A stretch of 63,932 nt of DNA, the filler included, from Nemertoderma westbladi (taxonomy: Eukaryota; Animalia; Xenacoelomorpha): the NCBI GenBank assembly GCA_032718475.1. It is 3 parts of 3 records of this genome, joined end to end, with 100 filler letters (N's around TTAATTAATTAA, not from the genome) between each part and the next. Parts side by side here need not be neighbours in the genome. Positions count along the whole stretch, not along the records: positions 18,664 to 49,078 come from JAUCBJ010005257.1; 2 more parts are not named here. One strand, written 5' to 3'. This document shows positions 4,020 through 60,330 of this stretch, piece after piece (the stretch's first letter is position 1; each line of letters begins with the position of its first letter). Below the pieces are notes generated by a model. It was not told the origin of the DNA. It saw only the letters and a program-made list of their open reading frames with translations, and did not search any database. Position numbers and translations under genes: made by a program.

Positions 4020-4633
4020 TTACAACACAACAAACAGCCTTTACGAAACACTGCCTAAGTGTAAACTAAGATATTAGGCCATCACAACCACGGATCGAAA
4101 CTTACGACATATCATAACGGCACCACCGTATTAAGCAGTCCAAACTGTAAACTAGACTTAATATTAAGCCCATATGAAACTCTCCACCAACCCTCCACAA
4201 ACTAGTCCATTTACAAAAGTACAAACAAACTTACTTTTTGCTAAATAGCTGAATTTCTCATGTAGCATCATTACGCAGATACAAGAACGCAAAATAACAC
4301 GAACATGTGGAACGTGGCGTGGCGTGGAACATGGCGTGGACAACACCAAATATATGTGTATGATGTGACATGATGTGACACACTTCTGACCAATTTTGAC
4401 AACAGTTGTTGCAGGAGTAGTGGTCGTGTTGACTAAGTATATTTTTTTTAATGAATAAATTTTATCTTTAATTAAAAATGTGCTGAAAATCTATTCACTG
4501 TGACTTTCCTTACCAAATAAGAGATATATTGTACAGAAACGTATAATAATTTTTATCGTTTTTGTAGCGTATTTATCTGTTATAGTGATTAACATCGTAT
4601 TATTTTCATTTCTAAACTATTAATTTTATGCAG

Positions 4634-4958
4634 TATAACCCTAAAGGTGTGGATAATGAGTACTACCAGCCCTCCAGTGAGTGGTTTGTAGAAACCGCAT
4701 ATGCCGATGAAGACGAATCACAATCTAAGGCTCGGATCATTTTAACTCTAAAAATAACTCGTAAATCCACCTTCTTCACATTTAACCTGATCCTCCCCTG
4801 CGGTCTGCTCACCGCTGTTATTGTCTTTTGCCAATATCTGCCTTGCACGTCGGGCCCACCAAAGGTACAAATAATCGTTTCATTATTTATGGCCATGGCG
4901 GTTTTTCTGTTGTTACTCAATGAAATTATGCCTAGTTCTGACGATCTACCGATTATTG
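4634..4958 (+). CDS. Cys-loop (nAChR-type) receptor subunit, alternative exon A: end of ligand-binding domain, M1, M2, M2-M3 loop
   Basis: Acceptor ttttatgcag|, donor G|GTAAGT; translation SSEW...LKITRKSTFFTFNLILPC...LPCTSGPPKVQIIVSLFMAMAVFLLLLNEIMPSSDDLPIIG; starts in phase 0, ends in phase 1, 325 nt. The acceptor position is less certain than the donor. Confidence 0.85.
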
Positions 4959-5515
4959 GTAAGTATTCCCCCGCTGCCCTCGTCCGCACCAAGCATGTCT
5001 GCTGGTTGGCAGCCCATTCAGCCCAAAATGTACATGCATTACTGTCTGTGTCTGCTACTCAGTTATTCACCAAACGTTTCCGTCAAATTAAAGTAAAAAT
5101 ATTAAGAATTCCCTGAATCATATAAAACTTTCAATAAATTTTCCAATTATGGATAAAAGTACCGGTAGTATTACTAATATTCCAATATTGTTGAAGACCA
5201 TATTATTATTATCAAAGACAAACAATATACTGACATGTATAACTAAAGATATAAGAAAAGAATCTAAAAAAACATTAAGTAAGAAAACATGACCATTTTG
5301 CCATATTCCAATTATTGATTGAATAAGTATAAAATATACAAGTACTTTCGATGCCCAAGGTTTTTTTATTTCAAGTTGTTTTTGCTTTATACGTAATATT
5401 TTTGGGTGTTTCAGACAATAACATGGACAGAATGCGTATACAAATTGGATTTTTACTTTTCATTTAATTTATTGCTTGTTTCACGTTTGTTTTTGTTTAA
5501 TTTTGCATCATTTAG

Positions 5516-5846
5516 GTTGATATGGAAAACTTTATAACTAGTTCCGAATGGATATTACATAACGCCTTCACCACACCCATGGTGACCTTTTACAATGACA
5601 CGGATTTAGCCCCGTACTATGCCGTTTATTTGACACTAAAATTAGAACGAAAGTCCAAATTCTTCACCTACAACCTCATTGTTCCATGCACAATGCTAAC
5701 CATCCTCATTTTATTGTGCCAATTCCTACCATGCACCAGCGGCCCAGCCAAAGTTCAGATTATCGTGGCACTATTCATGGCGATGGCAGTTTTCCTGGTT
5801 CTAGTTGGGAACATGATGCCTAGCAGTGATAGTGTTCCTATCTTGG
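5516..5846 (+). CDS. Cys-loop (nAChR-type) receptor subunit, alternative exon B (paralogue of exon A)
   Basis: T-rich acceptor catcatttag|, donor G|GTACGT; VDMENFITSSEW...PYYAVYLTLKLERKSKFFTYNLIVPC...SGPAKVQIIVALFMAMAVFLVLVGNMMPSSDSVPILG; phase 0 to phase 1, 331 nt. Confidence 0.9.
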
Positions 5847-8794
5847 GTACGTTCTAGAATGTTTTAAAAGCATCCCCTCTATGGTGTTTAAAGCATCCCC
5901 TCTATGGTGTTTAAAGCATCCATCCACCCAGTTATTTGTGCGTGTAACCGTATTTTTGTATATATCCTATTTCGGCTGTGATATTGTCTGCATTTCTCTG
6001 CCGATCTTTCTGCTCTTCTGCACAACAGGAACGGACACATTGCATGACGTCCAGACGGTGTAACGCACCAAACAATGGCAAAGCCGGTGTAAATATGGCG
6101 GTGTAAATATGGCACTTCGGAAAATTGTTATAAAGGTTGGATTCCCTTTCCCGATAGCATGGACCATTGTTATATACCAAGTGATCGCCTGAAACTACTG
6201 AAAGATTTTTGTTTTCATTTGAAATTGCATCCTACCACATTTAATTGGGGTTACCCTGATGCTGATATTTCGTGAGATCACTTATGAATTTTATTAATTG
6301 ATGATGTTACTAGAGATTTCCGATCATTTTAGTTTTAATGCGATCCTTATAAATTTCATGCATCCATTTTAGATGTAGTAAAATAAAAATTAGAAAATGA
6401 TTTTTAAAGAGGAAATTTTCAAAAGAAACTTTGATAATTTCACATATTTAATTGTTGATTCATGAGGTGTTCTCTATTTAATTGTTCATTCATGATTTCA
6501 TGCGATCAAACAGCTCATGCTTCATGCTATAGTCGCGGTTGGAATACACCTTTACCCATAGACCAACACAATATTGAACGATTTCTATTGGTGATAATTG
6601 AATATAACATTTTCTAATAGATATACCTGTATTTATTCTTCAGCTATAAATTATTTAAAAAAACTACTTCGTAGCTTAATAATGACATAAAGACATTGGG
6701 TGGCATAGGTCGTGTGAAATGGGTGAGATATAAAAATATTGCACTCCTAATAAATTATTACAAACTTCATTCAGTAGTCGTTTGCAAACTTGGAAAATTT
6801 GAAATTTAATATTCATTAATAATAATAAGATTGATTTATATTAATTATTACTTTTTAAAACAAATTCTAAAATTATATAATTATGCTACCAATTTAATTT
6901 GAGAATTCAAATTATATTTATTATTTGACTGCAAAGAAAATTTAAACTCACCCATATTTTTTAATTAATATTTTGTAATAACCCGTTGAGTGTAAGCAAA
7001 ATTTTCGAACCAAATCAATACACATTACCCTTACCAAAGATGCAGGTGAAAGTAACATATACGGGTTTTTCTAACCAAAACAATAAACTAAATAATCAAT
7101 TAAATATTAGGAAAAAACTGCAGGCATAATGATCTTAAAACTACTGCATACTATATATTTTGTATTTTAAAAACATATAAGTTATAACGTTAATAAACAT
7201 AAAATCAATCATGTTTGATAAAGAAAATAGTCGGCAACAAATATAATGAAGTTTTCCCAAGAAATATTCAAACGCCAAAAAAAATTTATTCCTAAAATCT
7301 TTTTTCCTTTCAACACTTTTCCAAAAAAAAAGCAACTAAACCCAAATATACAGACAAAATTTGCCAAATTGACGGTAAGCATTTTATTATAATGTGACTG
7401 CCAAAGAAAACGTAAATTCACTGAACAATTCACTCAAAACTTTGTCTGAAAAAAAATATTTTAGTAATACCAGGGGGAATATATCTGGTTAATTAATGCT
7501 AAATTTTGTTGACGATTCGTGATTTGAATAATGAATTTTGTGGCGCTCCACGAGAAAAGGGACCTTAACCGGTTTTTTCGAAATTTGAGTTAGGGGTTGA
7601 TTCAGATAGATAATATTTTTGACAGCATTTTGAAAAAAAATCTTTCGAATTGGTCAACTATTCGCAAAGTTATTCTAACTTATGTAAATGGTATCTGGTT
7701 AATAGCAAATTTTCAGAAACTGAGAAAAAGCACTTTAAAGTTCTACATCTTTTTTATCTTTTTATCAGTCTGTATGAATGTCTGTATGTCTGTCAAAAAA
7801 TAGGAAATGCTGACCAATTAACTGAAATTTACGCCCTTGGGGATTTCTCTAGTCGCTGATTTCATTTCCGATGTCAGTGTTCACATTTTATATAATGTAG
7901 ACTGTCTACATCACTAATTTATTTAAAAATGATGATAGCCCTACATTGTTAATGGTATAATCTTATATTTATAGCTGAATGAATGAATACCTGTAATAGG
8001 TTTGGTTAGTTTGAGGGAAGAGGGAAGATCGAGCTATTTTGGGGTGTTACACCGGGTATATTTTGTTATGGCAGCTGGTGTGTAGCCCAGAAATTTATGA
8101 CATAGACTCGCACCATCATGATCTCTTATTATAGTAGGCCATGGCACCATCTATGCTTTTAGTTTTCAATGTTGGATGTTCACGTAAATATTAATATTAT
8201 TTTTCTCAAATAGAATATATAACATAATATTATATAAATCGATAACTTATAATTAGTTCGAAAAAATATATCTATTTTTATATCCATTTCAATTTCTAAA
8301 ATATAAATATTCATATAATTTATATTTGCATGGTGAGGCATGATCTGCGTGAAATGAATTATAAAGTGCATCTCTCGAAATCGCACCTTCTCTGAAGTTT
8401 CAAAGAATAATGGGACATTCTAAAACCTCGGTAAACATATTCTAGTCAAAACCCACTTCTGAAATAAAAGCACAATTTCATATGTCTTTATAAATTCTGT
8501 CGGAATGAAACTAAACATCATCACGAATTTTTAACACTGTCCTGTTCACAGACTAGTACTCAGTCAGTCTAGTCGTAAGGCAATAATTTCATTGATCTAC
8601 GTGATAAGTTGAAGTCTAACGTACAATAACTAAGAAATAGCTGGATTTAGTAATATTCTCCCCTCTTGCTGTAAAACTGCCCGATCTTGTAGTAATGAAC
8701 CGATTGTGCAGACCTTTACTGTAATTTACCCTTTAATTGTCACGTCACAACAATCCTGTAAGCAACTGATTAATATTCACTTTTACGCAGGAGG

Positions 8795-8896
8795 CAAGCA
8801 GGACGCAGCGGTATGCAGGACGCAGCGGCATGCATTAGGCAGCGGCATGCAGGACGCAGCGGCATGCATTAGGCAGCGGCATGCAGGACGCAGCAG
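8795..8896. repeat. Short GC-rich tandem repeat (gcaggacgcagcggcat and variants)
   Basis: About 6 imperfect 16-17 bp units. Confidence 0.75.
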
Positions 8897-12239: not shown

Positions 12240-12638
12240 GTGTTGCTTAAGTTCCACCTTGGTGCTGTTTAAGTTCCACCTTGGTGTTGCTAAGTTCCAC
12301 CTTGGTGTTGCTTAAGTTCCACTTTGGTGTTGCTTAAGTTCTAACTTTGTGCTGCTTAAGTTCCACTTTGGTGTTGCTTAAGTTCCACTTTGGTGTTGCT
12401 TAAGTTCCACCTTGGTGTTGCTTAAGTTCCACTTTGGTGTTGCTTAAGTTCTAACTTGGTGCTGCTTAAGTTCCACTTTGGTGTTGCTTAAGTTCCACTT
12501 GGGTGTTGCTTAAGTTCTAACTTGGTGTTGCTTAAGTTCCACCTTGGTGCTGCTTAAGTTCTAACTTGGTGTTGCTTAAGTTCCACCTTGGTGTTGCTTA
12601 AATTCCACTTTGGTGTTGCTTAAGTTCCACCTTGGTGT
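12240..12638. repeat. 22-bp minisatellite (gcttaagttccactttggtgtt), about 18 copies
   Basis: Direct tandem repeat with ccac/ctaa variants. Confidence 0.95.
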
Positions 12639-13166
12639 CACTCGGCTGGTTGATTTGAATTCACATCTTATCGGAAGTCGTGGGTTCACCGCTCCTGATT
12701 ATCACAAAAGCTGAGCCTCGGTGGTTTGTCGCTCAAGTCGCAGATTACTAATACTAGAGTCGGCGATATTTTATTTCAGGAATGAAATTTCATATTATAT
12801 AGAAATAAAATAAGCTTTATATCCCGATATCTCTAAGCAAATTATGCAGTATATCCGGGTTCGGCGGGATTTAAAGCACTATTTTATGTTATCAATAATT
12901 ATTCTTCAACTTTACCTTATCGGCCCTCGGTCTTACTTATTGAGCTCACTCGTTAGGCTCGTTCGGTAAATAAGAGATGACTTTTTATTTGATTTTGGAC
13001 AAGCGGTATATAAAGACTTTTATCTACTGTACAATAAATAGTTAAATAATATATCGAACGACAGCACCCATTTTCGAAAATTTAAAAGAACTGTAATATT
13101 GTTTATGAGATACATACAGCGCCATACAGCGTTAATACACCGCCACCATTTTGCAATTTATTTTAG

Positions 13167-13783
13167 GTCTCTATTATGGTGCTAATATCCTACTGATTCT
13201 CATCGCAACAGCGATTAACGTTATCGTATTGAACATATGCAAGATGGACTGCGCGATGCCCCGGTGGGTTCGGGTGGTATTCCTGCACTACTTCGCGACT
13301 CTAACTCTCTACCCAAAACGGGCGAAGATTCCGCCGAAACAGAGTCGACATCACGTAAACTCTTCCGGGCGATGGGGCGACTCGCCGATCGCTTCCGACT
13401 CGATTCGGTTGCGGAACTTCTCCGGCGCAAACCGCGGCAATTCCTTCGACATCCACGGCAATGTGACCACGTCCTCGGCGATAGACTCGAGTCCGTTGCT
13501 AGGTGACGATAACTTCTACCTTATACAGAACATGCTGGACCAGATTCTGATGCATTTAGAACGATTTAACGCTAAACAAGCAAAGAAAGAAGAGAAGGCA
13601 GAGATCATTTCTGAGTGGGTTGATGTAGCGATTATAACGAATCGCTTGTTATTGTTTGCCTTTACTGTATTCGCGATAGCAATGACCGCTACCGTATTTC
13701 TCGGTTTCCCTCGAGAGTTAATTAACAATCAACAATCTGTGGAATTTAAAGAAAGAGACTTTAATGACACTAATAGTTTATAA
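13167..13783 (+). CDS. Cys-loop (nAChR-type) receptor subunit, terminal exon: M3, intracellular loop, M4
   Basis: Acceptor ttattttag| in phase 1, compatible with both exon A and exon B; LYYGANILLILIATAINVIVLNI (M3), MPRWVRVVFL, and EWVDVAIITNRLLLFAF (M4) match nAChR architecture; stop at 13781-13783. The N-terminal exons were not found in this window. Confidence 0.9.
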
Positions 13784-15713: not shown

Positions 15714-17061
15714 GTCTCACCTACCAAGTAGACTGGACAGCAGTAGTTACTGTCTGTATAGCTAGTCATATATATTTGATACAGACAGCCCAGCACTATT
15801 GTTTATACTTGCTCTGACAATATATATTTGATATTATTCCAGACGGCCCAGCACTATTGTTTGTACTTGGTCTGACTATATTATATTTGTTATTCCAGCT
15901 CTATCATATATATATTCGTGACCTCCATACCATTATTAGTTTCATATCAGCGATATTATTGCTAAGGTATTTAACTGAATATTATTAGTGAAATGCTCTG
16001 ATTTTATGACGACGAAAATGGTAGTAAGTTACGGGAAATCGTATCACGCACTCCAATCACGTGGATAATGAATAATTGCACGCAAATTTTCTGACACCCA
16101 CCCCGCAGAAACTTTATTTCCCGCAGAAACTTTATTTAATTATGATATATATGCATTAATGAATACCCCGCATCTCTGAATACAGTCTCTGTAATTATAT
16201 AGATTCTACATCAAGGGAATACATCAGTATTAATGTAAGAATTGTTTAAAAGTAAGTAATTTTCAAACGCTACTCCGTTTTAATCATATCGCTAAAATAA
16301 TCATAATCAGCTCTTATTTGCGTCCATTTTTCCCCAGAGATGAATTAATATCTATGTTTAACCATGCTAGTGATGTTTTATCATTTCTTCTATAACTGTA
16401 TTGAATATTATTATTAAATGAGTCCATAGAGCTCAATATATTAATCAATTGCTTGTCATGATTATAATAGGGTTTTATCTCGAATTATACAAGCGGCATT
16501 ATAAAATCTGCAAGTCTATTAGGAACTCTACAGCTTGAAGAGAGCCAGCCTACGCACGCATGAGACAGGACTGTTACGCCGCTATAAACCATGGCGTGGA
16601 TAGGAATTAATACGCATTAGTTGAGCATACCCCAGAGCAATCTGTAGGAACCAGATGGGCCTAATAATCGGGTATATATGATAAGTGGGCAAAAATATAT
16701 AAGAAATTGTCTTTGACAAGAATAAATAACTCGTATTAGAATCTTTTCTGCTGTAAATAATGTGCTGTGTATGTAACTCGTTCTCACAAGGTTGGGTTGT
16801 AGTTAAATCATATTTTAATATTAAAATAGTTCACTATTGTTGGAGTATATATATTTTCAGTTTATTAGTTCCAGTTATAAATCATATTATATTTTCACTT
16901 TTCGAGATTTTTTTCCTTACACACCAAATTTGTAAACATTATTCTTTCAGAATAATTTTTCTTTAGCACCATTGTATGGTTTTTCTCTTGTCTTAATTTT
17001 ATTCTAACGCACTATAATTATTTATTTTATTATTTTTGATATTTGTTAAAATATTTAAATA

Positions 17062-18015
17062 ATGTCATTCAATGAAAGTAACCTTCATCCACGGTTGTTT
17101 TGGAAGCTTATATATGTTATCAGTTTGGCATACTCACTGACACTGTTGTATATCTTATGGCAAGACATAGAGACAGTAAGGGCTTTGTTGTCACGTGTGG
17201 AGTTTACCGCAGACATAACTGAGAAAAACCATCAACATGGTTTCTTCACTGTAAATGATGGCGCTGATGACTGCAACAACGTAACTTGGCAACGAATTTT
17301 CGCGAATATCGATATTTTCGCGGTAAGTCACGCTGGTGGATGGTTGATCGTCGCACTATTCTTAAGAAATATTTACGTTTCCTTGACTTTGAGTGTAACT
17401 TGGGAAGTAACGGAAATAATATTTTCGCATCTGGTTCCAATATTCCCGGAATGTTGGTGGGATAAAGTTATATTTGATTGCCTTCTATGTAACGGGTGTG
17501 CTATTTATTTAGCCACATTTATTTCTCGCAAGCTTCACTTAACATCGTACGACTGGTCGAGAGTTGAAACTGCAAAACGCAAAGTGACGATATTTAACAT
17601 TCTCGGATTTTCATCACAATTGAAAGGACGTAGTTTAGAAATTATTTCGTTATTCCAGATATACGTGCTTTTGGAAACTTCCCAATTATGTATATGTATT
17701 TTACAAGTTGTTTTAGATTTTCCCGTAAACCACGGATTCCTTTTAGCTAGGTATATTCTCGTCATGTTAACGGGCGCCCCTGCAGCAGAAGGATTTTATC
17801 GCTATTACTCTGATAACAATTGCAAAAACATTGGCAAACAGGCGTCAGTTTTAATAACATTGCTTGCGCTAGAAATCGCAATATGCCTAAGACACGGACA
17901 CCATCTGTTTACGTTTTTTGATATAGGTTATGTAATTGTTTGGTTATCTATGCTGATGTGTGCCGCTTGTCTAACAGTCTACGCCACAAGCAGTAACATG
18001 CACGTAACATTTTAG
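17062..18015 (+). CDS. Phosphatidylserine synthase (PTDSS1-like base-exchange enzyme), divergent, single ORF, 317 aa
   Basis: Motifs HP..FW, DIFAVSHAGGW, TWEVTE and FPECWWDKVIFDCLLCNG align with PTDSS1 (DIFAFGHFWGW, TWELTE, NFAECWWDQVILDILLCNG); several hydrophobic segments; no introns within the ORF. Confidence 0.85.
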   Translation: MSFNESNLHPRLFWKLIYVISLAYSLTLLYILWQDIETVRALLSRVEFTADITEKNHQHGFFTVNDGADDCNNVTWQRIFANIDIFAVSHAGGWLIVALFLRNIYVSLTLSVTWEVTEIIFSHLVPIFPECWWDKVIFDCLLCNGCAIYLATFISRKLHLTSYDWSRVETAKRKVTIFNILGFSSQLKGRSLEIISLFQIYVLLETSQLCICILQVVLDFPVNHGFLLARYILVMLTGAPAAEGFYRYYSDNNCKNIGKQASVLITLLALEIAICLRHGHHLFTFFDIGYVIVWLSMLMCAACLTVYATSSNMHVTF

Positions 18016-22613: not shown

Positions 22614-23610
22614 CTAGGAACTGGGAAGATCTTCTACTCGGATGGTAGTGGCGTTGCTAGGGAGGTCAGCGTTACTAGGGGGGGCGGAGCTGCTAGGAGG
22701 GATAGCGATAGCGCCACCTGCTGGGAATCCGGACGGTAGCACTATAACTTGGGCGCTGGGGGCGATGGTGCCACCCTGGGCGAGGACAGCGGCAGTGGCG
22801 GCGGTCCAGGCCGCGCCACCGGGCTCCAATACCGCCGCCGCGTTAAGTGGCGCTGTAGTAATCTGCTGCTCGGTGGCGTTCACTGTTGGCGCCGCCGGGG
22901 CAGGGTGCGCCACAGCCGCCGGTGCTGTGCCACTGTCCACGAACCGCGGTATGTCCTCGGGCAGCGGCAGTGCGGCCGCCTCTCGCAGCGGGAGCGCGTA
23001 CTCCGGCAGCGGGTCCGTCTGGGACAGCGTAGACGTGACCATGACGTGATCCACCAGAGCCCAGCCACCCATGTTCTTCCGCCGCCGACCGGGCGACAAC
23101 TTCTGCCCGTGGAACGCGTGCAGATGGTGTTTGAGAGCGCTCTTAGAGCAAAGAATCTTCTCGCAGGTGGGACAACGACACGCGGAACGCTGCTTAAACA
23201 ACAGACGTTCCTCTTCCGTGCCGTGATCCTTAATCACATGATCCTTTAGTTGTTGCTGAACGCGATACGATTTATCGCAGACTTCGCACGAGAAGGGTCG
23301 CTCGCCACTGTGGATACGCAGGTGGCTTGTCATGTGACGCAGCTGCTCGCAACTGTAGTTACAGAAACCGCACTGGTGGTGCTTCTGTCCCTTGTGAGTC
23401 TCGAGATGGGTGAGCAATGAATATCGATCGGAGAACTGGGTGTCACAGAACTTACACTTCATTGGGACCACGGACGTGTGGAGTTTAAGGATGTGCTGCT
23501 TGAGGTCGGACTTCCGACCACAGGTTGTATCGCAGTACTCACACTGGTAACGCGGTTTATTCCCGGTGTGGCCCATTAAGTGCTGCTTCATGCTGCCATT
23601 CTGCGTGAAC
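22614..23610 (-). CDS. CTCF: CTCF coding exon 2 (second half of ZF6 through ZF11, Ala/Pro-rich tail)
   Basis: Acceptor tttgtttcag| ends at 23611; reads (R)[44 protein letters not shown] and so on, matching CTCF fingers; phase 2 agrees with exon 1; stop at 22614-22616. Confidence 0.93.
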
Positions 23611-24065
23611 CTGAAACAAACGAGTTACAGTTACAAAATGTATGACGTTGGAATATTCGGCGTACTCTTCGGTATTAAATTCTTCGCTAAGATAGAAGTT
23701 CCCCGGAGAAAGTAAGTAAGGGACGTCTTAATTTGTGACCAAAATAGATAATTACCTGGAAATAAACCTATAAAACTATGAAACAAAATAGAAAATATTA
23801 CTTAGAAAGGAGAAGTAAAAAAAATGTTCTGACGTGATGTGGATTGAGACGAGGTAACATAATGATTGGATTGGATCAAAAGGCGTAGCATCGCTGAGTT
23901 TCTCACTAATTTATGATCATTATGGTGACTATTGCAATTAAACAACTTTGTTTAAGTTTCGTATCTGATTCTCAATAATTAAACGTAAATGTTAACCACT
24001 GTGTACCCGGTATATAACTACCAACGCTGAGTTTATGCAGCTTGTGGAGTGGAAACAGTGTTGGT

Positions 24066-26043
24066 ACACCGGACACTGGTACGGTTTAACTTACCTCGCG
24101 TGACATACCGGACACTGGTACGGTTTAACTTACCTCGCGTGACACACCGGGCACTGGTGTACGGTTTAACTTACCTCGCGTGACACAACGAGCACTGGTG
24201 TACGGTTTAACTTACCTCGCATGACACACCCGACACTGGTACGGTTTAACTTAGCTCGCGTGACATACCGGACACTGGTACGGTTTAACTTACCTCGCGT
24301 GACATACCGGACACTGGTACGGTTTAACTTACCTCGCGTGACACAACGAGCACTGGTGTACGGTTTAACTTACCTCGCATGACACACCCGACACTGGTAC
24401 GGTTTAACTTACCTCGCGTGACACAACGAGCACTGGTGTACGGTTTAACTTACCTCGCATGACACACCCGACACTGGTACGGTTTAACTTACCTCACGTG
24501 ACACACCGGGCACTGGTGTACGGTTTAACTTACCTCGCGTGACACAACGAGCACTGGTGTACGGTTTAACTTACCTCGCGTGACACACCCGACACTGGTA
24601 CGGTTTAACTTACCTCGCGTGACACATCGGGCACTGGTGTACGGTTTAGCCTACCTCGCGTGACACACCGGGAACTGGTGTACGGTTTAACTTAACTCGC
24701 GTGACACACCGGGAAGTGGTGTACGGTTCAACTTAACTCGCGTGACACAACGAGCAGTGGTGTACGGTTCAACTTAACTCGCGTGACACACAGGGCAGTG
24801 GTGTACGGTTCAACTTAACTCGCGTGACACAACGAGCACTGGTGTACGGTTTAACTTAAAACTCGCGTGACATACCGGACACTGGTACGGTTTAACTTAC
24901 CTCGCGTGACACACCGGGCACTGGTGTACGGTTTAACTTAACTCGCGTGACACACCGGGCAGTGGTGTACGGTTTAACTTACCTCGCGTGACACACCCGA
25001 CACTGGTACGGTTTAACTTACCTCGCGTGACACAACGGGCACTGGTGTGCGGTTTAACTTAACTCGCGTGACATACCTAACACTGGTACGGTTTAACTTA
25101 CCTCGCGTGACACACCGGGCACTGGTGTACGGTTCAACTTAACTCGCGTGACACAACGGGCACTGGTGTACGGTTTAACTTAACTCGCGTGCCACACCCG
25201 AACCTGGTGTACGATTTAACCTACCTCGCGTGACACACCGGACACTAGTACGGTTTAACTTACCTCGCGTGACACACCGGACACTGGTACAGTTTAACTT
25301 AACTCTCGTGACACAACGGGCACTGGTGTACGGTTCAACTTAACTCGAGTGACACACACGACACTGGTACCATTTAACTTACCTCGCGTGACACGCCCGA
25401 CACTGGTACGGTTTAACTTACCTCGCGTGACACACCGGGCACTGTTGTACGGTTTAACTTAACTCGCGTGACTCACCCGACACTGGTGTACGATTTAACC
25501 TACCTCGCGTGACACACCGGACACTAGTACGATTTAACCTACCTCGCGTGACAACACTAGTACGGTTTAACTTACCCCGCGTGACACACCGGGCACTGGT
25601 GTACAGTTTAACTTAACTCTCGTGACACAACGGGCACTGGTGTACGGTTCAACTTAACTCGCGTGACACACCCGACACTGTTACCATTTAACTTACCTCG
25701 CGTGACACACCCGACACTGGTACGGTTTAACTTACCTCGCGTGACACACCGGGCACTGGTGTAAGGTTTAGCCTACCTCGCGTGACAAACTGGGCAACGG
25801 TGTACGATTTAACCTACCTCGCGTGACACACCCGACACTAGTATGGTTTAACTTACCTCGCGTGACACAACGAGCACTGGTGTACGGTTTAACTTTACTC
25901 GCGTGACACACCGGACACTGGTACGGTTTAACTTACCTCGCGTGATACACCGGACACTGGTACGGTTTAACTTACCTCGCGTGACACACCGGACACTGGT
26001 ACGGTTTAACTTACCTGGCCTGACACACAGGACACTGGTACGG
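24066..26043 (-). repeat. 39/41-bp tandem array, about 48-50 units, copying the CTCF exon 1 end plus splice donor
   Basis: Minus-strand unit gtaagttaaaccgtaccagtgtccggtgtgtcacgcgag; continuous with the real junction ...CCGTACCAGTGTCCTGTGTGTCAGGCCAG|GTAAGTT at 26015/26014. Confidence 0.95.
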
Positions 26044-27177
26044 CTTCTCTCCGGTGTGGGTTTTCAAATGTCGCTTCAGTTTAAAGTTATCGGCGCAGGA
26101 ATACGAGCAGAGATCGCATTTAAACGGCCGATCGCCAGTGTGGCTGCGTAGATGCCGCTTCAGCTTACTGATTTCCACACTCGCGTACTCACAGTGGGTG
26201 CACTTGTGCGGCTTGTAGAGCGTGTGTCTGTAGCGCTGATGGCGCGTCAACTCCCCTTTGGTAACGAAAGCCTGCACGCAGTGCTCGCAGCGGTGCGGCT
26301 TGGAGCCGGTGTGGATGTGCATGTGCTGGTAGAGAAGGGATTGGAAGCGGAAAGTGCGGTCGCAGTTGGGACACTTGTGCGGCCGTTCTCGGTAGTGGGA
26401 TCGGAGGTGTTTCTCTAAGGTCTCCTGACTAAGGGCCGCGTAGTTGTTGCAGATCTCGCATTGGAAGACCTGTGAGTGGTTGGCAGCGTCGATGTCGTTG
26501 TGAATCTGCTTATAAACATCGTAACGGATTTCTTTACGGATTCCAACATCTTCTTCTTCTTCTTCCTCTTCTCCCGATCCCTCATTGTCGCTGCTGTTAT
26601 TACCGGTTTCGTCGACTTCCGCCGCACCTTCCGTCTCCTCGTCTGGTTCATCGTCGGGGAACTCGTAGATCTCGGCGTTGGCTGTTACGGACGGAGTCGG
26701 AGGCGGTTCGTCTTTAACGCGAACGTCAGTGGCAACGTTCGCCGAACTGTGGCCGCCAGGAGGCGCTGACAGTCTGTCTTGTTGCAGCTGGGAGCCCAGC
26801 AACCCCCCGGCCGTGATGCTGGCCACCGGTATGTTAACGACCCGGCCCTCCGTATCCACCATGACCAGACTGAGGACCTCTCCCTCCCCGGTCACAGTGC
26901 CCACCTGGGGCTGCAGCACGATCGGTTGGTTGGAGCCGTCGACCCCAGAGATCTGGATGGGAGTGCCGAGAGTAAAGCTAGACCCGATCCCCAGCGAGGT
27001 CGCGTCCACGGTCGACATAGAGAAAGCGACAGGCGGTGGGGACGCAGACGGTAGCGGGCCAACCTCTTCATTGTCCACCAAGTAAGCGCCTTGCGGTAAC
27101 TGGTTGGAAAATGTTTCAAGGAAATTGTTAACATCAATTCCTTGGTATGTAGGATCACCTCCGGTTGATTCAGCCAT
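26015..27177 (-). CDS. CTCF: CTCF coding exon 1 (N-terminus, ZF1-5, first half of ZF6)
   Basis: AFVTKGELTRHQRYRHT, YASVEISKLKRHLRSHTG and FKLKRHLKTHTGEKPY are CTCF ZF3-5 signatures; acidic YEF motif corresponds to the cohesin-binding YxF; donor AG|GTAAGT. Spliced CDS is 2160 nt (719 aa) with 11 C2H2 fingers. Confidence 0.95.
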
Positions 27178-28849
27178 TGATAAATACTAGGCCTATCTAT
27201 TAATTCAGTTTAAATTGTATTACAAGTATTAGGATGTTAGCAGGTTAGGCCTACGATAAACCAGAATGTATGTATGTATATACCGTGTTATATACTGATA
27301 AAAGATCCAGGGATCAGTCAGACAGTCCGTACCGGTACTCACTACTCAGTTAGTCTGTAGATCAGTAGATAGTACTGTAGTGTAGTAGTATGATGTTGAT
27401 AAGTAAAAACAAATGCTAATCCAAATAAAGTAGGTAGTAGAACAAACAAGCAGACAAGAGTTAAACATTTTTTTTTATTTAAGTACCGCTAATTATATTG
27501 AAATTGAATCCATTACAAATACGAACAAGGCGTTTTAGCACCCGTTGGTCCGATTATGCAGTAAATAAACGAATTATTATGCACACGCAAACTGGCAAAA
27601 TTAAGTGAAATTTCAGAATTAGTTATATATGTATAAAAAATAAGTAGAAAGAAAAAATAAAAATAGATTACGACCTTAGCAGATTAAGTCAATTCAGTAA
27701 AAACAAATTTTAACGAGTTTAAAAAATATTTCCATAAAATTAAAATTAAGTACCTACCGCGCTACCGGTAATTGTTATATACATAAAAAATACGAACGTG
27801 GCGCTATAAATTAATATTAGGCCTAAACCGGTAGTCAGGCAGTCAGGTAGTGGGTATTTATTGCTGTTACCTTATTGCTACCAGGACCAGCTACCACAAC
27901 GACGGATAACATTTCAATGGTAAATTTTTAATGTTTAATGTTTTATAATTTACGGGTGTAGAAAGAAATATCTTATAAGGCACCCACTAACAAAATACAA
28001 GTTATCGGAAGTCGTCATAGTACCAAGTAAAAATAATGAACACCAACATAGATACACAACGATATATTTACCACGTTCACAAAATTTATATAATAAAACT
28101 ACAGTAGTGTTGCTACAGTGTTCAGTATTACGTGTAACCTAAAATGGATATAAATGTTTATGTGTACAGTAGATTAAAAACGGCAATAGTAACGTATATA
28201 CTGTGGAGTGAGCAATGAGTAAAACCAACATAAATACAAATAAAAAATAATAAAAATTAAAATAATAGGCCTATATTCTAAACATATTGCGTCAGTAGTA
28301 CGGTACTGTATATTAATTTTAAAGCAAATTTTGATATTAATTTTTTGTGTAAAGATAGATTAAAACATCAATACTACATGACTACATGTAGAGAAATCAA
28401 ATAATAAACCCAACATCATACTGTATATTTACAATATAATAAGATTACAAATTAAAAAATAAATTTAAAAATTTTAAAAACTTTATTGCGATAGTATAAA
28501 ATAGGCTAAAAATTATATGAACATAATTGTTACAGTAGATTAAAACATCATTATATACATTCGATAATAGTAAGAGATACGACGGTATATAGTGGAAGCA
28601 ATAAAAACCAACATACAATATAATATTTACTAATTCACGAAACTTAATTACACTAGTATAAAATAATGCAAAGTAATTCTAAAAGGGTTGAGACAATTAA
28701 TATAGAAAATAAAAACTAAAATATGACACATTAAATAAAATATCTGCTATGAAACATTCAAATATTGATGTGTGGAGAGACGAGAGAGAGTTAGTGAAAT
28801 AAAATATGGCATTGATTAAATAAAATATAATACAGTAAATTTAAGGGCC

Positions 28850-37751: not shown

Positions 37752-39155
37752 GTCAACTCAGATTCCTCCAAAACCTCCTCTTCTATGGGCGACTGGTTGT
37801 CTAAGAAGTCCCCCGCTGTACCCCTAACCTCCACCGCGACCCTCATTGTCTGTCCCGCCTCCGTTCTCCACCAATGGCATCGCGAGATAGAACGTCGTGT
37901 GGACGTCGGCCTCCTACGAACCTACATCTACCACGGCTCGGCTCGCGAAACCAACGCGAAACGACTCGCCTCCAACGACATGGTGCTAACGACCTACGGA
38001 ACGGTGGCCGCCGAGATGAAACCGGTGACGGAACGCTCCATAGCGGAACAGCGTTACTACGAACCGGCTGGGGACATTCCGGAAGGTTCCGGGGAGCTTC
38101 CGGTCCTCGGAAAGGTCCGCTGGGATCGGATAGTGTTGGACGAAGCTCACACCATAAAGAATCCCAAGAGTCAGGCGGCTATAGCGGTGACGTCATTGCG
38201 TAGTCGAGCGCGTTGGGCGGTGACCGGCACCCCGATACACAACAAACTCTTAGACATGTACTCCTTGCTGCGGTTCCTTCGCTGCTCCCCGTTCGACGAG
38301 TACAAGTTGTGGAAACGGCAGGTGGATAACTCGTCGGAGCTCGGCCGCAATCGGTTGGAGACTGTGGTTAAAGCCGTGCTCCTCCGACGGACTAAAAGCG
38401 AACTGGGTGTGGATAACAAGCCGTTGGTAACTCTACCGGAGAAGGTTGTTATCGAGCACAAGGTTGAGTTGTCGGCCGATGAGCGGGCCGTTTACGATGT
38501 CATGTTCACTCACTCGACGAGCGTTATGTCAAATTATCTTCAAGATAAAAATGATCCTGGGTCGTTGTCGAGTGGGTCTGCTGGTCGGGTCGCCTCTGGG
38601 TCGGCTGGTCGGGTCGCCTCTGGGTCTGCTGGTGGGGTCGCCTCTGGGTCTGCTCTCTCGGTGACTCACACTGGCGGCGCCGACACCGCCTGGGTCGATA
38701 AATTCTACGCCACGATGAACCAACACGGGGGCATCGCTTTTATCCTCGTCCTTCTGTTGCGTCTCCGACAGATCGCCACCCATATGGGTCTCCTCAAGGA
38801 AGTTATAGACGCCAACGACGTGGAAGAAGACGCCGACAAACAGGCGGGTATAGACCTCGCGGATAAACTCTTGGAGATGAGTATCTGCGAAGATTCTTCT
38901 AAGAAAACTTGGCAATCCAATAAGATGAGTTCCAAGTTAACGTTGTTGATGGAAAAGGTAACTGAGATCCGTTGTAGATCAGTTGAAGCCGGTAGGAAGA
39001 TCGTCATTGTCTCCCAGTGGAAGAAACTCCTCCATATAATAGCCGTCGAGTTGACTTCGCGACGCTTAAAGTATTTCATTATTGAGGGTTGTGTTACTGC
39101 GAAGGCGAGGGCTGATGCTATAGACGACTTTAATGATAATCCCAATGGAATTCAG
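37752..39155 (+). CDS. TTF2: TTF2 exon 2
   Basis: Acceptor tttaatcag|; TLIVCPAS, RIVLDEAH, RWAVTGTPIHN, LLRLRQ, KIVIVSQW; donor CAG|GTTAGA in phase 0. Confidence 0.93.
38572..38655 (+). repeat. In-frame 24-bp coding repeat (GSAGRVAS, about 3.5 copies)
   Basis: tgggtctgctggtcgggtcgcctc tandem copies inside TTF2 exon 2. Confidence 0.85.
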
Positions 39156-39239
39156 GTTAGAATATATTTCTTCTGTAATGCGAAGGTATTGTTTGTTGCT
39201 TTTTGTTTGTTTTAGAACATGTTTGTATCTCTTTGTGGG

Positions 39240-40030: not shown

Positions 40031-40172
40031 TGGCTCTACTTAGTCTGCCTGTAGTGCTAATGTTGTTTCGGTAACTTACCTGAACTGAAGGCCTCTACTA
40101 GAGGCAGAAAGCTTGTAACTGTCACTTTATCTTTTGTTTGTGGGGGTCTGCCTTTCTGTATGTATCTTTCTA

Positions 40173-43100
40173 TGTTTGTATCTGTTTGTTTTAGGTAATG
40201 CTTGTATCTGTTTGTTTTAGGTAATGTTTGTATCTGTTTGTTTTAGGTAATGCTTGTATCTGTTTGTTTTAGGTAATGCTTGTATCTGTTTGTTTTAGGT
40301 AATGCTTGTATCTGTTTGTTTTAGGTAATGTTTGTATCTGTTTGTTTTAGGTAATGCTTGTATCTGTTTGTTTTAGGTAATGCTTGTATCTGTTTGTTTT
40401 AGGTAATGCTTGTATCTGTTTGTTTTAGGTAATGCTTGTATCTGTTTGTTTTAGGTAATGCTTGTATCTGTTTGTTTTAGGTAATGTTTGTATCTGTTTG
40501 TTTTAGGTAATGCTTGTATCTGTTTGTTTTAGGTAATGTTTGTATCTGTTTGTTTTAGGTAATGCTTGTATCTGTTTGTTTTAGGTAATGCTTGTATCTG
40601 TTTGTTTTAGGTAATGCTTGTATCTGTTTGTTTTAGGTAATGCTTGTATCTGTTTGTTTTAGGTAATGCTTGTATCTGTTTGTTTTAGGTAATGTTTGTA
40701 TCTGTTTGTTTTAGGTAATGTTTGTATCTGTTTGTTTTAGGTAATGCTTGTATCTGTTTGTTTTAGGTAATGCTTGTATCTGTTTTAGGTAATGCTTGTA
40801 TCTGTTTGTTTTAGGTAATGCTTGTATCTGTTTGTTTTAGGTAATGCTTGTATCTGTTTTAGGTAATGCTTGTATCTGTTTGTTTTAGGTAATGCTTGTA
40901 TCTGTTTGTTTTAGGTAATGTTTGTATCTGTTTGTTTTAGGTAATGCTTGTTTCTGTTTGTTTTAGGTAATGTTTGTATCTGTTTGTTTTAGGTAATGCT
41001 TGTATCTGTTTGTTTTAGGTAATGTTTGTATCTGTTTGTTTTAGGTAATGTTTGTATCTGTTTGTTTTAGGTAATGCTTGTATCTGTTTTAGGTAATGCT
41101 CGTATCTGTTTGTTTGAGGTAATGCTTGTATCTGTTTGTTTTAGGTAATGCTTGTATCTGTTTTAGGTAATGCTTGTATCTGTTTTAGGTAATGCTTGTA
41201 TCTGTTTGTTTTAGGTAATGCTTGTATCTGTTTGTTTTAGGTAATGCTTGTATCTGTTTTAGGTAATGCTTGTATCTGTTTGTTTTAGGTAATGCTTGTA
41301 TCTGTTTGTTTTAGGTAATGCTTGTATCTGTTTGTTTTAGGTAATGCTTGTATCTGTTTGTTTTAGGTAATGCTTGTATCTGTTTTAGGTAATGCTTGTA
41401 TCTGTTTGTTTTAGGTAATGCTTGTATCTGTTTGTTTTAGGTAATGCTTGTATCTGTTTGTTTTAGGTAATGTTTGTATCTGTTTGTTTTAGGTAATGTT
41501 TGTATCTGTTTGTTTTAGGTAATGTTTGTATCTGTTTGTTTTAGGTAATGTTTGTATCTGTTTGTTTTAGGTAATGCTTGTTTCTGTTTGTTTTAGGTAA
41601 TGTTTGTATCTGTTTGTTTTAGGTAATGCTTGTATCTGTTTGTTTTAGGTAATGCTTGTATCTGTTTGTTTTAGGTAATGCTTGTATCTGTTTGTTTTAG
41701 GTAATGTTTGTATCTGTTTGTTTTAGGTAATGCTTGTATCTGTTTGTTTTAGGTAATGCTTGTATCTGTTTGTTTTAGGTAATGCTTGTATCTGTTTTAG
41801 GTAATGCTTGTATCTGTTTGTTTTGGGTAATGCTTGTATCTGTTTGTTTTAGGTAATGCTTGTATCTGTTTTAGGTAATGCTTGTATCTGTTTGTTTTAG
41901 GTAATGCTTGTATCTGTTTGTTTTAGGTAATGTTTGTATCTGTTTGTTTTAGGTAATGCTTGTTTCTGTTTGTTTTAGGTAATGTTTGTATCTGTTTGTT
42001 TTAGGTAATGCTTGTATCTGTTTGTTTTAGGTAATGTTTGTATCTGTTTGTTTTAGGTAATGTTTGTATCTGTTTGTTTTAGGTAATGCTTGTATCTGTT
42101 TTAGGTAATGCTTGTATCTGTTTGTTTGAGGTAATGCTTGTATCTGTTTGTTTTAGGTAATGCTTGTATCTGTTTTAGGTAATGCTTGTATCTGTTTGTT
42201 TTAGGTAATGCTTGTATCTGTTTGTTTTAGGTAATGCTTGTATCTGTTTGTTTTAGGTAATGCTTGTATCTGTTTGTTTTAGGTAATGCTTGTATCTGTT
42301 TTAGGTAATGCTTGTATCTGTTTGTTTTAGGTAATGCTTGTATCTGTTTGTTTTAGGTAATGCTTGTATCTGTTTGTTTTAGGTAATGTTTGTATCTGTT
42401 TGTTTTAGGTAATGTTTGTATCTGTTTGTTTTAGGTAATGTTTGTATCTGTTTGTTTTAGGTAATGTTTGTATCTGTTTGTTTTAGGTAATGCTTGTTTC
42501 TGTTTGTTTTAGGTAATGTTTGTATCTGTTTGTTTTAGGTAATGCTTGTATCTGTTTGTTTTAGGTAATGCTTGTATCTGTTTTAGGTAATGCTTGTATC
42601 TGTTTGTTTTAGGTAATGCTTGTATCTGTTTGTTTTAGGTAATGCTTGTATCTGTTTTAGGTAATGCTTGTATCTGTTTGTTTTAGGTAATGCTTGTATC
42701 TGTTTGTTTTAGGTAATGTTTGTATCTGTTTGTTTTAGGTAATGCTTGTTTCTGTTTGTTTTAGGTAATGTTTGTATCTGTTTGTTTTAGGTAATGCTTG
42801 TATCTGTTTGTTTTAGGTAATGCTTGTATCTGTTTTAGGTAATGCTTGTATCTGTTTGTTTTAGGTAATGCTTGTATCTGTTTGTTTTAGGTAATGCTTG
42901 TATCTGTTTGTTTTAGGTAATGTTTGTATCTGTTTGTTTTAGGTAATGTTTGTATCTGTTTGTTTTAGGTAATGTTTGTATCTGTTTGTTTTAGGTAATG
43001 TTTGTATCTGTTTGTTTTAGGTAATGCTTGTATCTGTTTGTTTTAGGTAATGCTTGTATCTGTTTGTTTTAGGTAATGCTTGTATCTGTTTGTTTTAGGT

Positions 43101-44223
43101 AATGCTTGTATCTGTTTGTTTTAGGTAATGCTTGTATCTGTTTGTTTTAGGTAATGTTTGTATCTGTTTGTTTTAGGTAATGCTTGTATCTGTTTGTTTT
43201 AGGTAATGCTTGTATCTGTTTGTTTTAGGTAATGCTTGTATCTGTTTGTTTTAGGTAATGTTTGTATCTGTTTGTTTTAGGTAATGTTTGTATCTGTTTG
43301 TTTTAGGTAATGTTTGTATCTGTTTGTTTTAGGTAATGCTTGTATCTGTTTGTTTTAGGTAATGCTTGTATCTGTTTTAGGTAATGCTTGTATCTGTTTG
43401 TTTTAGGTAATGCTTGTATCTGTTTGTTTTAGGTAATGCTTGTATCTGTTTGTTTTAGGTAATGCTTGTATCTGTTTGTTTTAGGTAATGCTTGTATCTG
43501 TTTGTTTTAGGTAATGTTTGTATCTGTTTGTTTTAGGTAATGTTTGTATCTGTTTGTTTTAGGTAATGTTTGTATCTGTTTGTTTTAGGTAATGCTTGTA
43601 TCTGTTTGTTTTAGGTAATGTTTGTATCTGTTTGTTTTAGGTAATGCTTGTATCTGTTTGTTTTAGGTAATGTTTGTATCTGTTTGTTTTAGGTAATGCT
43701 TGTATCTGTTTGTTTTAGGTAATGCTTGTATCTGTTTGTTTTAGGTAATGCTTGTATCTGTTTTAGGTAATGCTTGTATCTGTTTGTTTTGGGTAATGCT
43801 TGTATCTGTTTGTTTTAGGTAATGCTTGTATCTGTTTGTTTTAGGTAATGCTTGTATCTGTTTGTTTTAGGTAATGTTTGTATCTGTTTGTTTTAGGTAA
43901 TGCTTGTATCTGTTTGTTTTAGGTAATGTTTGTATCTGTTTGTTTTAGGTAATGCTTGTATCTGTTTGTTTTAGGTAATGTTTGTATCTGTTTGTTTTAG
44001 GTAATGTTTGTATCTGTTTGTTTTAGGTAATGCTTGTATCTGTTTGTTTTAGGTAATGTTTGTATCTGTTTGTTTTAGGTAATGCTTGTATCTGTTTGTT
44101 TTAGGTAATGCTTGTATCTGTTTGTTTTAGGTAGTGCTTGTATCTGTTTGTTTTAGGTAATGCTTGTATCTGTTTGTTTTAGGTAATGTTTGTATCTGTT
44201 TGTTTTAGGTAATGCTTGTATCT
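40173..44223 (+). repeat. 26-bp (some 22-bp) tandem array, about 155-160 units, copying the TTF2 intron 2 acceptor plus exon 3 start
   Basis: Unit gtaatgcttgtatctgtttgttttag; the last copy is the real junction tgtttgttttag|GTAATGCTTGTATCTCTAAAG at 44208/44209. Confidence 0.97.
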
Positions 44224-48250: not shown

Positions 48251-48534
48251 TGTCTGCACCAGGTGTCTGCACCAGGTGTCTGCACCAGGTGTCTGCACCA
48301 GGTGTCTGCACCAGGTGTCTGCACTAGGTGTCTGCACCAGGTGTCTGCACCAGGTGTCTGCACCAGGTGTCTGCACCAGGTGTCTGCACCCACCAGGTGT
48401 CTGCACCAGGTGTCTGCACCAGGTGTCTGCACCAGGTGTCTGCACCAGGTGTCTGCACCAGGTGTCTGCACCAGGTGTCTGCACCAGTTGTCTGCACCAG
48501 GTGTCTGCACCAGGTGTCTGCACCAGGTGTCTGC
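48251..48534. repeat. 13-bp minisatellite (tgtctgcaccagg)n, about 21 copies
   Basis: Direct tandem repeat followed by tgcttaacgtttacaccc, the same anchor as the repeat at 8-203. Confidence 0.95.
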
Positions 48535-52492: not shown

Positions 52493-52698
52493 TTGGGGGC
52501 TGCCGCCCCCAAACCCCCGCTTCTTAGGTTGGGGGCTGCAGCCCCCAAACCCCCGCTTCTTAGGTTGGGGGCTGCCGCCCCCAAACCCCCGCTTCTTAGG
52601 TTGGGGGCAGCCGCCCCCCAAAATCCGCTTCTTTGGTTGGGGTCTGTCGCCCCCAAACCCCCGCTTCTTTGGTTAGGGGCTGCCCTCCCCAAACCCCG
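52493..52698. repeat. 36-bp GC-rich minisatellite, about 5.5 copies, each with an internal hairpin
   Basis: ttgggggc-tgcc-gcccccaa-acccccgcttcttagg. Confidence 0.9.
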
Positions 52699-57732: not shown

Positions 57733-57950
57733 ATAGAAAAAAAAATTAAAAACTAATTTAATTGAGAATCAACTGTCACATGTACAGATGTATGTATACA
57801 GGTATAGGCCTACCGGAACTCTGAAAAGGCTGGAGGCCTCCAAACTGCCAAACCTGCAAACAGGCAGACAGGATAGAGCTTTCATTTGAGAGAAGTTGCA
57901 TGTTTATTCGGCTTAGGCCTATCCATTTATTAAGTTTTAATTTTTGAATT

Positions 57951-60330
57951 ATGGGTAAAAAAGGGAAATCTAAAATTAAAGTCACTAACAAATCTATGAA
58001 AGGGGTTAGTCGTCTCAGCAAGACGAAACGACGAGAAAAAAATGCAATTAGATCACAGATAATGAAACGGAAATCTGATGAGAGAAGTGGAGAAAGTCGA
58101 CAGATGGTCGATAAAGAAGTGGAAGTTAGCGACAATTCTGATATAGACGATTATATCGATAATATAGGGATTGGGGAGCCGGTGAATGTTTCAGCTAGGA
58201 AGGGAGACCGGAATGGTAAGAAACGGCGTCGTATAGAAACCCAATACCGGTACCCCTCTAGTTCCGAAGAGGAGTATGACAAATGGGATGAAAAGTTTTA
58301 TACTGTGGAAAGTAAATTCGTTACCGGAGAAACAACTTCCGTTGTTCCGTTACTTCCGGTTAAGTTTGGCAATAAACTTGTTCGTCAATCGATGGTTCTA
58401 CCCAATACGAAATGTACGAATGAAAGCGATGAAGACGCTGAAGGTGACGTCATTGAATCAGATGATGATGTCATCAATTCGGATGGTGACGTGATTAACT
58501 CCGATTGTAGCGAAGAATCGCCCATTGAACCCCGATCCGCCGTTGAACTCTACGCCGAACGAGTGCGGCAACTGGCTGACAGTAAATCCCGGATGGGTTG
58601 GCTCTGCTGCCAGATAACTCAGGACCCGGACAGCAGCGGGAAGAAACTGAAGGAGATGCGAGGCTTCCTGGGTGTCGTCGACCCCGTCCTCAGGGTCTCC
58701 TTAGCCAGACTGGCGGCTCTCTCGCTCTGCGAAGTCTTCAAGGACATTCTCCCGGATTACCGGATTATAAGTCCAAATTCCGGAGGGGAAAAACTCAGCA
58801 AAGATATTCGCGGTCTGCGGGACAGAGAGGCGAGTTTACTTAGGAACTATCAATTGTATCTGGGGAAACTGGATGTGTTTATACGGAGTGGGTTGGGTAA
58901 AGGTGTGGTGAAAGGGGATAGTAGGGGGTGGATGGATGGAGAAGGAGGGTATTAAACATGGTACCGGTAACGAGTCTCTGGCTATCTGTTCTGTGTTCTG
59001 TTTGTGCGAATTACTTAGAGATAAACCGCAGTTTAACTTCCGTAACAACATCGTATTAACCCTCGTCCCGATAACCGCTTCTAAATGCGCCGCGGCCGCT
59101 AATAAATCCCGAGAAACATTCGAGTTGATCTTCGCTGAGGATAAAAGCGGCGAGTTATCCCTGGAGGTTGTCCGAAACCTCGGTAAGTTTCTCAAGGATA
59201 AACACTTCGACGTAAATCCTCGGTGCCTTGACGTCTTCCTTAAACTCGACCTCCGGGATGCGGAGGCGCCGGGTTCGAATCCTGCTAAGCGCCGTAAAGA
59301 GGAGAAAGTCGGGTTGTCTAGGAGACAGAGACGGGAGCTGAAAGAGCGCAGTAAATGGGACGCCGAGTTATTGGAGATTGACGCCGAGGAGTCCGAGGAG
59401 AAGAAGTCGAGATTCCACGCCGAGATCGTCAAGCACTTGTTCTACACCTACTTCCGGGTCCTCCGAGCTCCTTCCCGGATACTCGTACCTTCCGCTCTCG
59501 AGGGTCTCGGTAAGTTCTCCCATCTCATCAACATCGACTTCTTCGACGATCTTCTATCTCTACTGAACAGTTTGGTTGAGTCGAGTGACTCATTTGAGTC
59601 GGGTCTATCAACTTCCGGTTTAAATCGACGGGATAGTTTGAACTGTTTATTAACTGTCTTCCGGATTCTCTCTGGGCAAGGTGAAGCGATTCTAGTAGAT
59701 CCAACTAACTTCTATAGACTTCTCTACAACATCTTGTTCAACTGCGGTGACAATGTGGATGACGTTGAACTCCTCGTGAAGGTGATGGACGCGATGTTTC
59801 TCCGTCGGATGAAACTAAACCCTCCCCCGCGTCTGTGCGCCTTCATTAAGAGACTATCATCGGTGGCGCTACACCAACCCCCACCCACCGCGCTGGTCTT
59901 CCTCTACCTAGGGCGATCGTTGTTGCTACGCAACTCTGCCACTCAGACACTATTGGACACGGACACCGAGTCGGCCGCTGGAGGGCGCTATCTTCCTTTG
60001 CTAGGAGACCCAGACCGTTGTGAGGCGGTCGCCACGGCGCTCTGGGAACTGGCGGCTCTGGAGCGGCATTGGGCCCCGTGCGTGCGCCCCCTAGCGGCGC
60101 ATATCGTACGTGGTTGTCCGACCCAGTCCCATGGCCGAGGGTCCCTACCCATAGCTATGTATTCCAAGTCTCCTTCCGAACTTCTGTTTGTTTACAGGAA
60201 CTACAATCGGGACGGTTTGCTGATGCGGGAATCTCAAAACCGTAAAACTTATCCGCGTGTTTGTAGAACCGATAATCGTGATTGGCTGAAGGAATATATG
60301 ACTCATACACTAGCATCGTTGATTGGGTAA
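57951..60330 (+). CDS. NOC3L: Nucleolar complex protein 3 homolog, present as two overlapping ORFs (57951-58955 and 58936-60330) separated by one frameshift
   Basis: LLPVK, SLCEVFKDILPDYRI, LCELL...FNFRNNI, YFRVL, LEGLGKFSHLINIDFFDDLL, RLCAFIKRL and ALWEL..L.RH are NOC3/CBF motifs; both halves are otherwise uninterrupted. Confidence 0.88.

Follow-up and report, generated by a model that had tools for sequence, protein, structure and literature searches.

The last nucleotides of the first coding exon of a CTCF gene in Nemertoderma westbladi are repeated over and over in the intron that follows, and the exonic copy differs from the adjacent repeat at four third codon positions, one of which exchanges Gln for His. 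Which of the two sequences has changed? A sequence-only reading had proposed that the array keeps an ancestral or alternative state of the exon, and that the exon diverged from it, possibly under selection. The locus was analysed within a stretch of 63,932 nucleotides, filler included, from assembly GCA_032718475.1, hereafter the window.

A CTCF gene interrupted inside zinc finger 6

The two coding exons (Table 1), once joined, translate to 719 amino acids with 11 C2H2 fingers, which translation and PDB searching place in the same order as in CTCF. The best PDB match of exon 1 is human CTCF (PDB 7w1m chain H, E 1.5e-70), and that of exon 2 is the segment 416-548 of human CTCF (E 4.9e-56). By its eleven ordered fingers and these best matches, the minus-strand gene is assigned to CTCF. 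Upstream of ZF1, the Tyr-x-Phe motif that contacts cohesin reads YEF in exon 1, and YDF or YNF is present at a like place, compared by position and not by an alignment tool, in P0084, P0104 and P0042. No second CTCF copy was found over exon 1 at 85% likeness, and each DNA run gave one flat, single-contig depth there.

The finger order is common to the window protein, human CTCF (PDB 7w1m chain H) and insect-like sequences (P0084, P0104 and a subset of L001-L080), and the signature residues of ZF3-ZF7 are retained. Nevertheless the protein is highly divergent, with no CTCF seen scoring above 57% against it. Compared to the panel it deviates at 57 of 145 columns that are near-invariant and at 48 of 86 that are moderately conserved, and its branch length is 2.95 in a CTCF tree built from insect-like sequences with no non-CTCF outgroup. 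The gene also has two coding exons only, and its intron splits the Arg codon of ZF6, a point at which each of the 17 outside loci examined reads through. Four of these 17 are apparently genomic and carry an intron a few codons on. This ZF6 intron may be a lineage-specific gain. It stands in an AG/GT context within the Arg codon (26014-26015 / 23610-23611, minus strand; slashes within motifs mark splice junctions). Intron gain by duplication of the repeat unit was considered and rejected, the intron part of the unit matching the start of exon 2 no further than GT. The repeat array occupies the first 1949 nt of the intron; the final 455 nt are unique, with a pyrimidine tract and a CAG acceptor. 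At the other end of exon 1, run X1 carries a 6-nt deletion allele at 27187, directly 5' of the ATG.

Contigs of four of the five runs that contain the locus were aligned to positions 25960-27250. X1 and X3 come from sample S1, and X2, which showed 0 differences and may be the source of the window, was not counted as independent. X4 is marked 'DNA?' and was treated as RNA-derived, one of its contigs lacking the intron exactly and leaving the array uncovered. This contig covers exon 1 and passes from the first donor straight into exon 2, showing 0 differences; its loose end at 26013 matches the beginning of exon 2. The exon contigs of X1, X2 and X3 extend to 25987 and show no difference at 26020 or 26017. 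CQAR is read at the first donor in genomic contigs of two samples and in the spliced contig of a third. The main transcript thus reads CQAR and is spliced at the first donor, as given by one spliced contig, contigs being prone to hide rare forms. The cDNA comparison of CQAR with CHAR suggested beforehand comes out in favour of CQAR for the major form.

The same data bear on the explanation that the array edge is misassembled or that a downstream donor gives rise to CHAR transcripts. Repeat edges are error-prone and contigs drop rare variants, but genomic and spliced contigs all read CQAR, which refutes an error for the major form. In the exon frame the donor reads AGG TAA, and splicing at a downstream donor would give a stop right after Arg388, in the middle of ZF6; any use of a decoy therefore meets this stop before the His codon. 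We give this explanation next to no weight.

Table 1. Positions of the features discussed, counted along the window
Feature	Position	Strand	Description
CTCF coding exon 1	26015..27177	-	ORF; ATG to phase-2 junction inside Arg388; N-terminus, ZF1-5, first half of ZF6
CTCF coding exon 2	22614..23610	-	Second half of ZF6 to stop
CTCF intron	23611..26014	-	2404 nt, GT..AG
CTCF intron minisatellite	24066..26007	-	48 full units and one 22-nt partial unit
Exon copy of unit	26008..26046	-	32 exon nt and 7 intron nt; 4 substitutions from unit 1 by alignment
Unit 1	25969..26007	-	39-nt root type, centre of unit tree; KPYQCPVCHA in exon frame
Authentic donor CAG/GTAAGT	26009..26017	-	Only donor with C at -3; used in X4
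Lys third position	26044	-	Left edge of unit; similarity ends 2 nt further upstream; homology uncertain
Pro383 third position	26029	-	T in window, S2 and S3; G (array base) in S1 exon contigs X1 and X3; synonymous
Gln386 third position	26020	-	Exon G; array C (45 units) or T (3), never G
Ala387 third position, donor position -3	26017	-	Exon C; G in 48/48 units
Second junction array	40172-44223	+	About 157 copies of a 26-nt unit

Structure and turnover of the junction arrays

Each unit of the CTCF array consists of the last 32 nt of exon 1 followed by the 7-nt donor GTAAGTT. Unit lengths range from 33 to 43 nt and are chiefly 39 or 41. A 29-nt core, allowed up to three mismatches, was matched 20 times, compared to 0 in 100 shuffles. 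The array is present in three DNA runs, with depth ratios of about 84, 43 and 15, which are not copy numbers. An array-less allele, to which loose ends at 25986 might have pointed, was rejected: the exon contigs end at 25987 and the loose ends come from other records. A donor-like GT site ends 32 of the 48 units, 25 of them in the form GAG/GTAAGT, and the GT is lost in 16.

The 33 distinct substitutions found in the array are spread evenly over codon positions 1, 2 and 3 (11/10/12, p=0.80), 27 of the 48 units are frameshifted and five contain stops. The array is therefore non-coding, as the sequence-only reading had taken it to be. The alternative of an array of coding cassettes would involve coding constraint and in-frame splicing of units; neither was found in the array, and there is no codon bias. 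Only 11 of 48 units would yield an in-frame finger that keeps both cysteines together with a GT donor, and only three the root peptide.

A tree of the units together with the exonic copy, as had been suggested, placed unit 1 at the root, with the exon copy joining there by 4 steps and the units lying 0-9 steps away. With only 39-43 nt per unit its resolution is low. Unit depth is 7.4% per site. Internal turnover is visible in variant families common to many units and in repeated pairs (units 36-38 resemble units 45-47, for example), and the commonest variant is present in 26 of 48 units. Every unit junction reads AG/GT (24066-26014, minus strand), like zero-length recursive splice points, yet with GAG and no pyrimidine tract. 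The array stops 22 nt into a unit, which suggests a later deletion or a 22-nt seed repeat. An origin by hairpin or template switch was rejected after four folds, with z from -0.66 to 1.30. The first unit spans the exon-intron boundary, as the spliced contig shows.

The window contains a second array of this kind, in a helicase gene that we take to be TTF2-like. Its 26-nt unit is built from the 11 nt that close an intron and the 15 nt that open the following exon, and it is from the last copy (44209) that the reading frame runs on. Each unit reads TAG/GTAATG, acceptor-like and donor-like together, and the exon copy is identical to the majority unit (80 of 153 pieces). A degenerate copy of the acceptor unit is located at 39190-39235 (plus strand), about 950 nt upstream of the array and near the start of the same intron. 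A 24-nt coding repeat of about 3.4 copies, encoding GSAGRVAS, lies within the large helicase exon at 38572-38654 (plus strand).

Elsewhere on the plus strand, long intron-poor ORFs are found at 17059-18015 and 57948-60330. The first encodes a 318-aa membrane protein, presumably resembling phosphatidylserine synthase. The second, a NOC3-like gene, runs in two overlapping frames near 58912-58955, which corresponds to a short intron or a frameshift. Exons at 4616-5857 and 13136-13783 resemble those of ligand-gated ion channel subunits and apparently belong to two or more tandem genes. Further minisatellites are located at 9-203, 8793-8894, 12240-12638, 48251-48534 and 52493-52697.

Four third-position differences and their direction

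The exon ends in AAG CCG TAC CAG TGT CCT GTG TGT CAG GCC AG (26046-26015, minus strand), then GTAAGTT (26014-26008), and the corresponding part of unit 1 (26007-25976, minus strand) reads AAA CCG TAC CAG TGT CCG GTG TGT CAC GCG AG. The pattern noted in the sequence-only reading is confirmed: the differences, at 26044, 26029, 26020 and 26017, all fall on third positions, three being synonymous and one exchanging Gln and His. The chance of a third-position-only pattern is 0.006 when all four differences in the 32 sites are counted, 0.023 without AAG/AAA at the edge, and 0.074 when the polymorphic Pro site is also left out. At 26020, 26017 and 26044, the bases of the exon (G, C and G, respectively) are carried by none of the 48 units; the exon copy therefore stands outside array turnover, with no recent exchange between the two. 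CpG deamination was rejected as the cause, three of the changes being transversions and the window showing no CpG depletion (o/e 0.92); the exon copy contains one CpG and unit 1 contains four.

Variation within the exon bears on one site. Four SNPs were seen in exon 1, all synonymous and at third positions, so the exon is constrained; the chance of one of four landing in these 32 nt is 0.11. At Pro383, the CCG allele of sample S1 could be a retained older state, or could have been copied in from the array by conversion; two array units, too, show the G-to-T change in this column. Among the other haplotypes, proposed as a source of evidence, S1 carries CCG at the Pro site; at the Gln/His site all exon contigs read CQAR.

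At the Gln/His site, human CTCF carries His (KPYECYICHA), in accordance with the vertebrate residue given in the sequence-only reading. Of 80 metagenome loci, 23 matched a CTCF signature, and ZF6 was readable in 17; these are insect-like sequences and not relatives of the species under study. The residue is His in 12 of them (two with identical DNA there), Gln in three (CQARFTQ), Arg in one and Pro in one. Only three CTCF-like proteins occur among the 120 protein matches listed, two with His and one with Asn. The His described as conserved is a majority state and not an invariant one. In a poorly resolved tree, two of the three Gln loci form a group (97/86) that leaves out the third. His is likely the deep ancestral state at this site. 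Gln is the commonest substitute, and it could have been present in this lineage long before the array arose, since other CTCFs carry it and the window protein has lost many conserved columns.

Protein searches returned mostly poly-zinc-finger matches and no close relative that could polarise the sites. The N-terminus gave no match, another protein search gave 2 unrelated matches of 4 candidates, and none of the 150 representative proteins listed, at 49% identity or less, matches the whole exon. A single generic linker match came from the runs of organism B, and none from those of organism C. The direction was weighed with a rough model of four scenarios, in which the priors, the constraint and the mutation rate of the array were assumed. 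Across 24 settings the probability of His in the exon at the birth of the array ranged from 0.16 to 0.93. Taking these results together, we lean slightly towards His having stood in the exon at that time.

The reading that we prefer, by the slightest of inclinations, is that the array passively preserves exon sequence from the time of its origin and that the exon copy has drifted at tolerated positions. A local duplication of the exon end and its donor would have seeded the array, which would then have grown by slippage or unequal exchange. The exon copy, as the edge unit, would lie outside homogenisation, as reported for the edge units of amphioxus mirages (PMC3087553). Only changes tolerated by the protein would have survived in the exon copy, hence their restriction to third positions. 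His-to-Gln would count among these changes, the residue being variable in CTCFs, although its direction leans only slightly towards a change in the exon. The decoy donors are probably harmless because the most upstream donor would win.

Several observations are compatible with this passive preservation. The differences are concentrated at third positions (p 0.006-0.074, depending on the sites counted), compared to an array free of codon bias; the S1 exon allele CCG equals the array state; His is the majority in the outside loci (12/17) and the human residue; and Gln is tolerated at the site in 3 of 17 outside loci. Against it stand the long protein branch and the chance that the S1 allele is a conversion product. 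Pure drift also faces a shortfall: at 7.4% unit depth, about 0.4-0.7 surviving exon changes are expected, and at least three has p 0.006-0.03. The excess may stem from an array of greater age than its units suggest, from a change in the founding unit or from selection. The proposal that the array preserves an older allele is plausible; it finds support at the Pro site and is left in near balance at the Gln/His site, and AAG/AAA, at the unit edge, may not be homologous.

A change in the founding unit is the basis of the main alternative, which we retain as a tentative one. Gln would be old and the His of the repeat coincidental: the founding unit would have mutated from CAG to CAC, perhaps together with GCC to GCG in one clustered event during the duplication, before spreading to all units. 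Gln does occur in other CTCFs, and about half of the comparable conserved residues are missing from the window protein. A third-position change of CAG yields His in two cases out of three. Moreover, the two fixed differences are 3 nt apart, the chance that both fall on third positions being 0.074, and the model gave 'array changed Gln to His' a share of 0.07-0.84. However, the exon state is kept by no unit, unit 1 included, and no other of the 33 distinct array substitutions is fixed, the commonest reaching 26 of 48 units. Fixed array changes would also be expected mostly at first and second positions, where there are none.

The change count above the drift expectation would suit selection on the exon to differ from its copies. 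The C at -3 gives a full U1 match and would beat the 25 near-perfect decoys, whose use would truncate CTCF, while mismatches would damp recombination with units that are mostly broken. The exon donor is indeed the sole CAG/GTAAGT among 49, and few units would be usable as a finger, by the 11 of 48 and the three root peptides given above. Downstream sites of perfect consensus captured about 70-90% of splicing in F7 minigenes (PMC1557585). On the other hand, in the same system decoys with a consensus value of up to 91 did not compete with the first site (PMC1557585). Units 1 and 2 have intact donors, and the GT shows about three distinct changes over two sites compared to about one per site elsewhere, which is no clear excess. 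The S1 allele removes one of the mismatches. Finally, divergence of the exon copy is not required, because the TTF2 exon copy equals the majority unit. Selection against decoys appears unneeded, the F7 result leaving room for a benefit without requiring one, and we consider such selection unlikely. A fuller version is a shade less likely still: the exon end would have been driven off its own 48 decoy copies, through His-to-Gln and G-to-C at -3, until the true donor was the sole perfect one, and the array would be a dated record of a repeat-caused protein change.

Seeding of the array from a CTCF paralog or retrocopy reading CHAR would explain the coding-like pattern of differences without any change in the exon. 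Such a source is very improbable given the flat single-contig depth over exon 1 in each DNA run, with no second copy at 85% likeness, and given that the unit includes the gene's own intron donor in place.

Relation to known splice-junction minisatellites

Donor-spanning minisatellites have been described in human F7, IFI6 (6-16), CBS, LMNB2 and PDGF (Borensztajn et al. 2006, PMC1557585). The layout seen here is known and common, and the CTCF array is a real further case of a splice-junction minisatellite of the F7 or mirage type. A literature search found no published CTCF case of an exon-intron minisatellite. If relatives carry His, the minisatellite would act as an archive of a core chromatin gene, keeping an older allele of it; if the change at -3 is needed for splicing, a junk repeat would have forced a compensatory change in a coding exon. 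Otherwise the array is a harmless oddity, and a natural test case, in an invertebrate, of how the first donor is chosen over 25 near-consensus decoys.

The closest parallel is the 37-bp VNTR of human F7 intron 7, whose first unit spans the exon/intron boundary, whose donor is reiterated in the intron and whose most upstream donor is used, as is the case here (PMC1557585). The F7 repeat has 5-9 units, includes only 4 exon nt and has pseudo-sites identical to the true site (PMC1557585). In contrast, the CTCF array has 48 units and 32 exon nt readable as protein, and its true donor is unlike all decoys at -3. The amphioxus mirages of Adh3, globins, TnC and PGBD5 are minisatellites of 10-160 bp that span donor or acceptor junctions, with normal splicing and a concerted evolution from which edge units are excluded (PMC3087553, PMC3902484). 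The window likewise contains both a donor and an acceptor array. The mirage papers are not known to report a codon-patterned difference between exon copy and array, or to draw on one to infer an older protein state (PMC3087553, PMC3902484). What the CTCF array adds to these systems is a unit long enough to be read as protein, so that the array can serve as a built-in outgroup for its own exon.
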